This document shows positions 60,575 through 63,283 of a stretch of DNA of 64,000 nt, one piece after another (positions within the stretch are counted from its first letter, which is position 1; each line of letters opens with the position of its first letter). Below the pieces are notes generated by a model. The model searched no databases and had not been told where the DNA came from. It saw only the letters and a program-made list of their open reading frames with translations. The translations under genes and the position numbers were made by a program. The stretch is taken from contig NC_092373.1 in assembly GCF_030028105.1 (NCBI RefSeq), positions 147,289,556-147,353,555 on the forward strand. Reading direction: 5' to 3'. The DNA comes from Mobula birostris (Eukaryota).

Positions 60575-60590
60575 CTCCCCCCCCCCCACC
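60575..60590 (-). other. Polypurine tract
   Basis: The minus strand has a G-rich tract (GGT-G11-AG) immediately before the 3' LTR. Confidence 0.9.
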
Positions 60591-60845
60591 AAATAAAGTC
60601 ATGTCCTCATGATTTCTAAATAACTCACCACCCAGTCCTATAGACACACAACACACATACACAGATACACACAGTGACAGTGCTCCCCAAACAGTGGACC
60701 TTACTCTCGTCCCACGGGTGCTAAATAGGCCAACCTATGTGGGAGCTTCTTAACCCTCTGAGACCTCCGTACCCCTTCACCTAAACCCAAAAGGCTCAGA
60801 CACTACTAGGGATACCACGGGCCTGCTTGCCAACTCCTCTCTCAC

Positions 60846-61670
60846 TCAGGCCACCACTACAGCTCGGAGCCCCCAGTCCCGTGTCCAGGGCCCCGCCTCT
60901 CCTCCTTTCCAATCCTGCCGCAACTCAGACTGCCCACAGCTATCCCTCCCCACTACACCTGACTCAGTGGGAGAAGGGCCAAAGGTCTCTTCCTCAATCA
61001 CGGAGAAGTTAGCGAAAGGCAGCATGTTCCACATGTGCAGCACATCATCCTTCGAATCCGTATCCTTCCTCATCCCCTCGATCGATAGCTGCTGGTTAAG
61101 TTTCTCCAAACTGAAACATTTAGCCGGGGCTACCCCTTCAGCCTCCTGCAGTTGAGACGTCAGCTTCTTCGGGGACTCCTTCAACTTTCGCCACAGCCTC
61201 AGCAGTTCTGACTCAGGGTTCTTGGCCATCTCAATCTGGGATGCAGTTACCCCACCAGCTGCTTCCTCCCTGACCTGAAAAGCAGCAGTTAAAGGATGTT
61301 CAGCCTCCGGTTGTTTCTTCCTGAGGGCGTTCTCCAGGTCAACGTTCAGTTTTTCCACTTCATTTAAACTCGCGATAGTCACCTTCAGGTTCCTTTCAAG
61401 CGTCCGCCTCCATTTTCCGAGATCTGTCCTCCATTTCTTCACCTCGGGAGTGTAGTCAATCTCCTTTCCCTGGGCTCTCGGTTTTCTATTGACCTTAGTT
61501 AGAACACTTCCTTGATCTTCCTCAACTTGTAAATCTTCCAATCTGTTCTGAATGGACGTCTTGAGTTTCTGCTGATCCCTTTGAAGGTGGGTCATCGTTT
61601 CTTCTCGCTGGATTAATTCATCAGTACATGACCGCAGTGTGGTGCAAATCCCCTCTTCCCTGTGTCTCAT
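60846..61670 (-). CDS. 274-codon chimeric ORF: sarcomeric myosin rod mosaic (aa ~1-198) fused to the Gypsy pol C-terminal tail; expression unknown
   Basis: Supplied ORF. It contains [45 protein letters not shown] and [13 protein letters not shown], each matching myosin II rod motifs. Confidence 0.5.
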
Positions 61671-61790
61671 TCAGATTGACGACCTGGGTTTCCATCCCCC
61701 GGTCCACCACCATCTGTCCCAACACCAGGAAGTTCAACTGGTATGTCGGGTCATTTTCCTCACATTGCACCAAACTCCTCCAGCCAAAAA
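61077..61790 (-). pseudogene. Captured, intron-less sarcomeric myosin heavy-chain rod (S2/LMM) fragment, most similar to MYH16 by eye
   Basis: Collinear matches to recalled MYH motifs: QEKNDL, LDDLQAEEDKVNxLTK, EKKxRxDLERxKRKLEGDLK, RLEEAGGATSxQIEM and KKLAx[39 protein letters not shown] and ELLRL favour MYH16. Confidence 0.85.
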
Positions 61791-61794
61791 CTCC

Positions 61795-62620
61795 TCCACA
61801 TTTGACACTTCGCTTCGGTCGCCCGGGCTCAGTCACTCGCCTCGCCTCATAGTCCCCCCAGGCGAATCCAAGCTCTAGGCGGTCATCCACATACGTCAAA
61901 ACTCCACACACCTTCACTTCCCCCATGGTCTTCCTCATGCCCCGTGGGAAGGATGCAGGAGCTCCGGATATGCCCTTGGGCATCTTTTCGGATCAGAAGA
62001 ATCCTAGGGAACTAGTAAAGGCCATCTTCAGCTCAACAGCCGCACTCCTCAGGATCTGGCAACATCCACCCCTCAGATGCAGCACATTAAACCACATCGC
62101 ATAATCCACACACACGCTGCCTTCATCTCCCATGCCGCTAGGGTCCAGTTGCCGCGACCCCTCTCTCACTGAGGTGTCTTCAGCGGTCAACTCCCCTCCC
62201 TCGTGGTGGTTTGGAGCGTCTACTAAGAGGATCTCACTCTCAGCTACTTTCCCCAAGCCGTACCACCGCTGGGTCTCGTTTAAATTTGGTACTGGCTCAA
62301 GGCTGCTACACACATCCTCAGAAGCAACTCGACACACTGGGTGCCCAGACAATGCCCCCATGAACTCCAGGGTCATTAATCAATCATCGTCTTCTGGATA
62401 ACTACTGCCACTAGTACCCAAAGTCTCCGGTGCCCTTGCGGTTGTCAAGGGTAAATGCTTCAAACACCAGTTGTAAAATGAACTGTACAACAACTTGATC
62501 TGTGCTCCGGGGTCGAGGATAGCTTTAGCATCGCTTCTCTCTATCCATAGCGACACCCTGGGGTGTGGCCCCTCTAGGCCTTCAGGAATAGGGTCTTTTC
62601 CTTTCGGAAGTTCATTGGTA
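61795..62620 (-). pseudogene. Decayed Gypsy protease and N-terminal half of RT
   Basis: [17 protein letters not shown] (aspartic D-T/S-G site), WFNVLHLRGGCCQI (from FSVLDLRSGYYQI), [16 protein letters not shown] and LTYVDD. Confidence 0.9.
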
Positions 62621-62759
62621 CATTGCTGGGAACGTGCTTCCCCAGAGACCCCAAGCCTTTCCCCCACTGGCCTCCACTAAGTTTCTCAATCCCCCTCTGA
62701 TCAGCTGAACAACTGAGGGAGGGGCTGACCCCCTGAAATGATCCCTCTGGCACTACAAG

Positions 62760-63030
62760 CAATTTAGCTGCCCTCCTAGCCAGAGAAGACACACTGAAAA
62801 CATTCCCCCCTCTTTCAAATAACTGACAGCTGTCACTATAGTGTAAGTGAACCTGACAGCTCTAACACCGTCACCAGCCCGCCTACTCAAACTTTCAATC
62901 AATCCCTGTCGCTCTCCCTCAACCGAGCATTGTCACTCATCTAACAACTGAGAGATCTGCTCCGCCCACATCTCACATGCCTCCGCCCCTCTTGGGGTGG
63001 ACACTATCCCAAGTGCCAGGCGGAGCCTGC
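62760..63030 (-). pseudogene. PNMA/Ma-like gag remnant
   Basis: GIVSTPRGAEACEMWAEQISQLLDE followed by [16 protein letters not shown], as in fish Gypsy gag proteins related to PNMA. Confidence 0.75.
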
Positions 63031-63261
63031 CAGAGCTAGAACATTTATTCGCAGACTCTATCTCCAAATCAGACCACTCTTTCCTCTCCCTCCCAACCGC
63101 ATGGACAGCCCCTAGTGCCACCTCCAACTCGTCAATGCCAGCCTGAACTCGAACAAAGACCTCACCCACCACGCATGCAGCAATAATCAGCAAATAACCC
63201 ACAGAGACACACATTACAGATTTAAACAGGGCACCCACACAGCATACCAACAGACTCAAGC

Positions 63262-63280
63262 ATCCCGGACAAAGCCCCCA
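63262..63280 (-). other. Primer-binding site, tRNA-Pro type
   Basis: Minus strand TGGGGGCTTTGTCCGGGAT, 3 nt from the 5' LTR, versus the canonical PBS-Pro TGGGGGCTCGTCCGGGAT. Confidence 0.9.
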
Positions 63281-63283
63281 CAA

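Follow-up and report, generated by a model that had tools for sequence, protein, structure and literature searches.

Positions 59877–63980 of the window (the whole 64-kb stretch of Mobula birostris DNA analysed here) hold, on the minus strand, a full LTR-retrotransposon insertion. Its 3′ LTR (59877–60574, minus strand, 698 nt) has TG...CA ends, and its 5′ LTR (63284–63980, minus strand, 697 nt) ends in CA and begins with TA rather than TG. A target site duplication (TSD), GTGT, flanks the element, with the left copy (59873–59876) at the 3′ terminus of an older, LINE-like repeat, which we take to be CR1, and the right copy at 63981–63984; this left flank belongs to repeat families D7/D15/D17 of the window. 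A polypurine tract (PPT; 60575–60590, minus strand) adjoins the 3′ LTR, and the primer-binding site (PBS; 63262–63280, minus strand) resembles a tRNA-Pro PBS with one substitution and one extra base, the tRNA-Pro motif itself being confirmed in PMC4587795. Bar the TA at the start of the 5′ LTR, the element shows the structural hallmarks of an LTR retrotransposon, namely paired LTRs, TSD, PBS and PPT. No canonical AATAAA was found in the 3′ LTR, and blastn found no second copy of the interior or of the LTRs within the 64-kb window.

The two LTRs are identical in 657 of 694 aligned columns (94.7%), and they differ by 37 substitutions (26 transitions, 16 of them CpG-type, and 11 transversions) and by seven gap columns in four indel events, in agreement with the initial annotation, which had counted about 40 differences in about 700 positions, many of them CpG-type. 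The K2P distance is 0.056, or 0.031 without CpG transitions, and the LTR divergence gives an insertion age of ~0.028 substitutions per site. The observed/expected CpG ratio is 0.93–1.09 in the LTRs, compared with 0.48 in the interior and 0.23 in the window. A separate solo LTR (52658–53349, plus strand), which is not part of the element, had been read as evidence of a related family. A distant relationship is borne out by local alignment of its 3′ ~300 nt to the element LTRs (scores 69 and 76; 187/331 columns), a score reached by none of 200 shuffles, but the two do not belong to the same family, with no blastn match between them at E ≤ 1. No TSD was seen at the solo LTR ends as set (52658/53349).

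The 2.7-kb interior consists of a degenerate PNMA-type Gypsy gag-PR-RT-RNase H fused to a fragment of a myosin rod. The gag remnant (62690–63214, minus strand; aligned ~63136–62690) occupies a single frame, with its first ATG at 63214, stops at 62935 and 62755 and its C-terminal part deleted; its Pfam PNMA match (E 0.0027) lies below the cut-off, and tblastn from PNMA-gag proteins reaches it with E down to 1.5e-11. Limits of the pol segments, which lie in a different frame from gag in this copy, were set by frameshift-aware alignment to the intact pol P0132. The protease (PR) remnant (62344–62676, minus strand; aligned 62661–62344) matches P0132 at 50 of 106 positions, with an altered catalytic motif and a stop at 62382. 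A shortened PR-RT spacer (62128–62343, minus strand) continues in the frame of PR and RT, and leads into the reverse transcriptase (RT) remnant (61840–62127, minus strand), which keeps YVDD, has an altered first catalytic Asp motif, an internal deletion of ~27 residues and a stop at 61995 that is absent from the sibling P0004. The RNase H remnant (61699–61791, minus strand) matches 15 of 31 residues in P0132 701–731. Overall, PR, RT and RNase H are 46% identical (148/321) to P0132, the best intact pol, with large deletions; most of RT and RNase H is missing, integrase is absent, and nine of 31 invariant pol columns are changed. With its PR and first RT motifs altered and integrase lost, the element can no longer encode working enzymes. 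In relatives of the element, PNMA, RVT_1, RT_RNaseH and rve domains occur (20 of 148 scanned), and the order RT-RH-IN is present in P0135 and P0139, integrase being gone from this copy. These domains, along with a gag upstream of PR-RT-RNase H, indicate that the parent element belongs among PNMA-type Metaviridae.

The end of RNase H and integrase is replaced by a myosin rod segment in the sense orientation and in frame (61077–61698, minus strand), which is collinear with the myosin-16-like protein P0013 and carries a private frame change near 61656, absent in siblings. It covers P0013 residues ~908–925 (through P0002), 961–1076, ~1087–1096, 1139–1174 and 1383–1417, at 41% identity (80/194), and the ORF at 61670–60846 gives a collinear match to myosin rods (PDB myosin-7, E 5e-6). 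Element sequence lies on both sides of this host coding piece, the downstream side consisting of an acidic tail, then the PPT and the LTR. The tail (60846–61076, minus strand), which is common to family members, follows the myosin piece in frame, forms the last ~76 residues of ORF 61670–60846 and ends at a TGA that precedes the 3′ LTR by 271 nt and the end of that LTR by no more than 969 nt. No match to it outside the family was found among 148 library matches listed and 119 named myosins; our guess is that it probably derives from the post-integrase end of pol. A functional myosin gene was rejected as an identity for the locus, which has no motor domain and only rod fragments, with large deletions and five prolines.

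Relatives in ray genomes and the donor gene

An ORF search matched ten of 495 candidate proteins, all from myliobatiform rays: four from Mobula birostris, four from M. hypostoma and two from Hypanus sabinus, spanning Myliobatidae and Dasyatidae. These ten named relatives lie on ten different contigs (taking the longest contig of each), at 37–90% identity, and four of them (P0002, P0004, P0006, P0010) carry an RT-myosin fusion in one frame. A search with the PR-RT frame, stops read as X, added at least three further unnamed RT-myosin chimeras among the 148 new of 150 listed matches (242 in total). The myosin insert is thus not a single-copy feature, as the initial annotation had anticipated, and its further prediction that such fragments would be mis-annotated as myosin genes holds for three of the ten named relatives, which databases label as myosins. 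The other copies are known as predicted proteins only, and gene predictors favour open copies; a single-sequence search of longer proteins gave no match in 2116, which is weak evidence.

A junction joining myosin residues 1174 and 1383, with 208 residues (1175–1382) removed, is common to this copy and nine of the ten named relatives. P0008 and P0145 have larger deletions with the same end point, P0131 lacks more of the myosin and P0133 ends earlier. In the parent protein, an ELEE peptide recurs at both ends of the 1175–1382 deletion, a pattern that template switching would produce. Repeated parental peptides are likewise joined by a subfamily deletion in P0006 and P0010, both from M. hypostoma, which removes ~143 myosin residues. 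Copies with identical TE-myosin junctions had been expected; this proved right for the 3′ junction and the internal myosin deletions, which are common, but not for the pol-myosin 5′ junction, which varies between subfamilies and has been remodelled. The deletions are stepwise, common or private to subfamilies, and occur in two ray families. Because the 208-residue internal deletion is so widespread, one old capture, followed by spread and long diversification, is the simplest reading. At 91% identity to this copy, P0001 and P0004 are about as close as the LTR age would predict, which marks the three as siblings from one burst. The locus is a single ordinary, fairly young insertion, and the Ty3/Gypsy family to which it belongs is old, multi-copy and non-autonomous, with a PNMA-type gag; we regard the multi-copy, old-capture part of this explanation as very probable.

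Sequence comparisons point to MYH16, the masticatory, jaw-muscle-type myosin, as the most likely donor of the rod fragment. When searched with the family profile, nine myosin-16(-like) proteins rank first among the best 120 of 165 matches, with E down to 5e-26. In a tree of 39 of the 119 named myosins and ten element sequences, with P0009 left out, the element copies are monophyletic (UFBoot 100) and join MYH16 (99); a second tree of 16 myosins and seven element sequences, mapped through a non-MYH16 reference, recovers the MYH16 grouping at 96.4/96, cartilaginous-fish MYH16 being absent from the tree references. An AU test rejected an invertebrate placement (p 0.036) and retained other vertebrate myosins (p 0.075). 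Pairwise scores favour MYH16 for seven of 11 sequences and other myosins for four, and among 47 diagnostic columns 19 speak for MYH16, 12 against it and 16 are uninformative. A masticatory myosin has been reported in shark jaw muscle (PMC11050549).

One relative from Hypanus sabinus, P0009, is a predicted SDHAF3 isoform X1 with a LYR domain at residues 8–62, followed in its second half by the myosin piece and tail of the element. This join is either an exonisation or an annotation artefact.

Protein drift and the retained reading frame

Next to the LTRs, the interior looks old. This copy has changed 39 of the 84 covered columns that are invariant in myosins, and held-out real myosins have changed 6/108, 13/110, 20/111 and 30/108; the LTR age alone predicts 94–95% protein identity, i.e. 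5–6% changed. Myosin and pol have changed far more than that, which places the capture long before this insertion, upholding the age mismatch proposed in the initial annotation, together with its observation that interior segments are far diverged from their parents (pol 46% identical to P0132, myosin 41% to P0013) and carry deletions. The amino-acid drift looks as if it were neutral. Five prolines occur in 177 residues of the myosin piece, against none in 28,343 residues of named myosins; mismatches score −0.13 to −0.95 on BLOSUM among the copies, compared with −0.4 to −0.6 under a neutral model and +0.15 to +0.51 in real myosin pairs; and of the myosin deletions, which remove 42, 208, 40, 9, 3 and 13 residues, only one in six is a multiple of 7.

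The description of the interior as heavily eroded fits its protein sequence but is wrong for its reading frame. This copy has two gag stops, two pol stops and one frame change, and its PR-to-tail frame holds two stops in 614 codons, both in the 340 codons of pol and none in the 274 of myosin and tail. Without selection, 8.5–16 stops are expected at d 0.15–0.25 (P 0.009 to 1e-5, from a simple model applied to one locus that was noticed because of its ORF), and the expectation stays at 8.5 or more even with the strand's own G/A-rich composition; post-insertion age alone predicts 1.4–2.4. As a control, decayed LINE RT pieces in the window hold 15 stops in 929 codons (Fisher P 0.012). A 279-codon open LINE RT fragment at 1088–1924 of the window serves as the reference for this decay control. 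Additionally, the nine deletion and fusion junctions counted from PR through the myosin piece are all in frame, with a chance probability of 5e-5, in a setting where repeat-guided deletion inflates the number of in-frame events. The RNase H-myosin junction is in frame only in the siblings P0001, P0002 and P0004, not in this copy. We judge it rather likely that the open frame has been under selection irrespective of the amino acids that it encodes.

Origin, spread and comparison with known captures

The best overall explanation, to which we give a probability of about 0.6, is a non-autonomous family, mobilised in trans, whose reading frame is selected to stay open irrespective of the protein. 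Capture would have occurred when the template was switched to a myosin mRNA packaged along with the element RNA, following the template-switch model described for LTR-mediated retrocopies (PMC5131818). Copies would then have been moved in trans by an autonomous relative recognising the LTRs, PBS and PPT; the intact pol closest to the element, P0132, is only 46% identical, and no autonomous partner was identified. A frame that ran uninterrupted to a stop close to the 3′ LTR would have given a copy an advantage in transposition, regardless of the amino acids encoded. The likeliest cause would be RNA stability (escape from nonsense-mediated decay, NMD) or packaging coupled to translation, rather than any myosin-like function of the protein. 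In Rous sarcoma virus (RSV), premature stops cut unspliced RNA to about 10% and reduce packaging (PMC9143442), which makes NMD escape a reasonable candidate by analogy, and we propose it only tentatively as the specific cause. Translation into the long frame is only putative, the gag and pol frames being different here and no gag of this element family being found among the 158 proteins examined; likewise, no full gag-pol-myosin fusion protein was found. A stronger version, in which a frame without meaning as protein (dead gag-pol with myosin as stop-free filler) has been kept since before the stingray/manta split, only open-frame RNA surviving surveillance and being packaged, is speculative, and we would not bet on it at even odds.

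The most serious alternative keeps the same non-autonomous family and treats the open frame as a by-product of repeat-guided in-frame deletions, chance and ascertainment, its interior eroding without any selection, as in the pure-erosion account of the initial annotation. The neutral look of the amino-acid changes fits this account, as do the private frameshifts in copies and the predictor-selected nature of the database copies, and since the largest deletion joins repeated peptides, repeat-guided template switching alone may have produced the in-frame deletions. Repeat guidance leaves the scarcity of stops unexplained, however (two against at least 8.5 expected), and the frame crosses PR, RT, RNase H, myosin and tail, all of unrelated origin, and reaches the same alignment end position in P0002, P0006 and this copy. 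We therefore consider pure erosion unlikely.

A functional fusion protein, useful to the element or the host, for example a coiled coil that multimerises, enters helper particles or interferes with autonomous elements, is less probable still. The open frame is retained across two ray families, P0005, P0006 and P0007 have no proline in their myosin blocks, P0006, P0007 and P0010 have changed only 26–32% of invariant columns, and genes captured by crocodilian ERVs are described as being under purifying selection (PMC4299795). Against this stand the four to six prolines in the subfamily of this copy, substitutions of a neutral type, myosin deletions that mostly disregard multiples of 7, and the retention of different rod parts by different subfamilies.

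Decayed myosin paralogues or segmental duplicates hit by Gypsy insertions, rather than a mobile family, could be imagined from the three relatives annotated as myosins and from the fact that copies elsewhere are known from proteins alone. This is highly improbable, because at this locus the myosin piece sits between two LTRs with PBS, PPT and TSD, because it has no intron-sized insertion over ~170 collinear codons (926–1096), which in the parent presumably span several exons, and because in-frame RT-myosin fusions occur in seven other proteins on different contigs. Finally, the idea that a native protein of the element resembles myosin only as any coiled coil would, prompted by the lack of a Pfam myosin-tail match in the ORF or any of the ten relatives and by weak, mixed ESM Atlas results led by generic coiled coils with low recognition, is already refuted by collinear blocks with specific motifs, by an alignment score of 264 (shuffles, 70 ± 11; reversed query, 99), and by the best 120 of 165 profile matches (long), all of which have myosin Pfam domains.

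By analogy, the trans-mobilised family appears to work like an LTR-mediated retrocopy that has turned into a non-autonomous family, LTR-mediated gene capture itself being already known. The retrocopies described by Tan et al. 2016 (PMC5131818) likewise place a host coding fragment between LTR-retrotransposon sequence, and some of those chimeras re-amplify as non-autonomous elements; the cases presented there are recent and few-copy, from fly, mosquito, zebrafish, chicken and mammals, whereas the ray family is old, present in two ray families, diversified into subfamilies and has kept its fused frame. Maize Bs1 (reviewed in PMC13317346) is also an LTR element with host gene fragments in a chimeric ORF. 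As presented in that review, Bs1 is a plant element with pieces of three host genes, reported to be transcribed, translated and possibly functional, and a title cited there reports non-random mutation of its captured ATPase fragment; the ray family, in contrast, is vertebrate and carries one myosin gene with neutral-looking protein drift. CrocERV29 (KIT-ligand) and CrocERV31 (nectin3) are multi-copy vertebrate LTR lineages that captured host mRNA before a species split (PMC4299795). According to that account they are retroviruses with near-complete ORFs (~76% identity for nectin3) under purifying selection, unlike the ray Gypsy element, in which the host fragment fused into pol is degenerate and has suffered deletions. 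Metaviridae with a PNMA-type (RBD-CA-NC) gag are described as active in fish, amphibians and reptiles (PMC11011659), and the gag, PR, RT and RNase H remnants in the ray match PNMA, RVT_1 and RT_RNaseH proteins. In comparison with those elements, the ray copy has no integrase, a deleted gag C-terminus, broken enzyme motifs and a myosin insert.

We found no report of this ray family in the literature searched; Repbase, Dfam, subscription journals and supplements lay outside that scope, and an uncurated consensus may exist there. Among the papers compared here, as far as their accounts go, captures are recent or retroviral, and the ray family represents a long-lived case of a cartilaginous-fish Gypsy element carrying a captured host gene. 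It accounts for spurious myosin/MYH16 gene models in rays (three of ten matches) and for one predicted SDHAF3 isoform, and such models can mislead studies of the ray myosin gene family. If selection acts on the frame only, its sole target would be translatability, and a block of captured host exons would serve as stop-free filler; the many copies would then allow a direct test of RNA surveillance shaping non-autonomous elements, and would provide, across the genome, a natural test of NMD as a force in transposon evolution.

Elsewhere in the window, Pfam detected no host gene among the 11 other long ORFs. Fragmented ORFs on the minus strand at 54436–56046, two pieces of which have no Pfam match, look to us like the remnant of a hAT/ZBED-type transposase, and a pair of 62-nt inverted repeats at 49384/56340 accompanies them. 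A 235-codon ORF (30024–30728) with no Pfam match is enclosed by 285-nt inverted arms (73%) at 29989–31206, with an outer 50-nt pair at 29485/31350. At 14345–15304, a G+C-rich tandem array of 67-, 38- and 33-nt units in at least 13 copies has long open frames on both strands; it gives only low-complexity Pfam matches and is possibly part of another retroelement.
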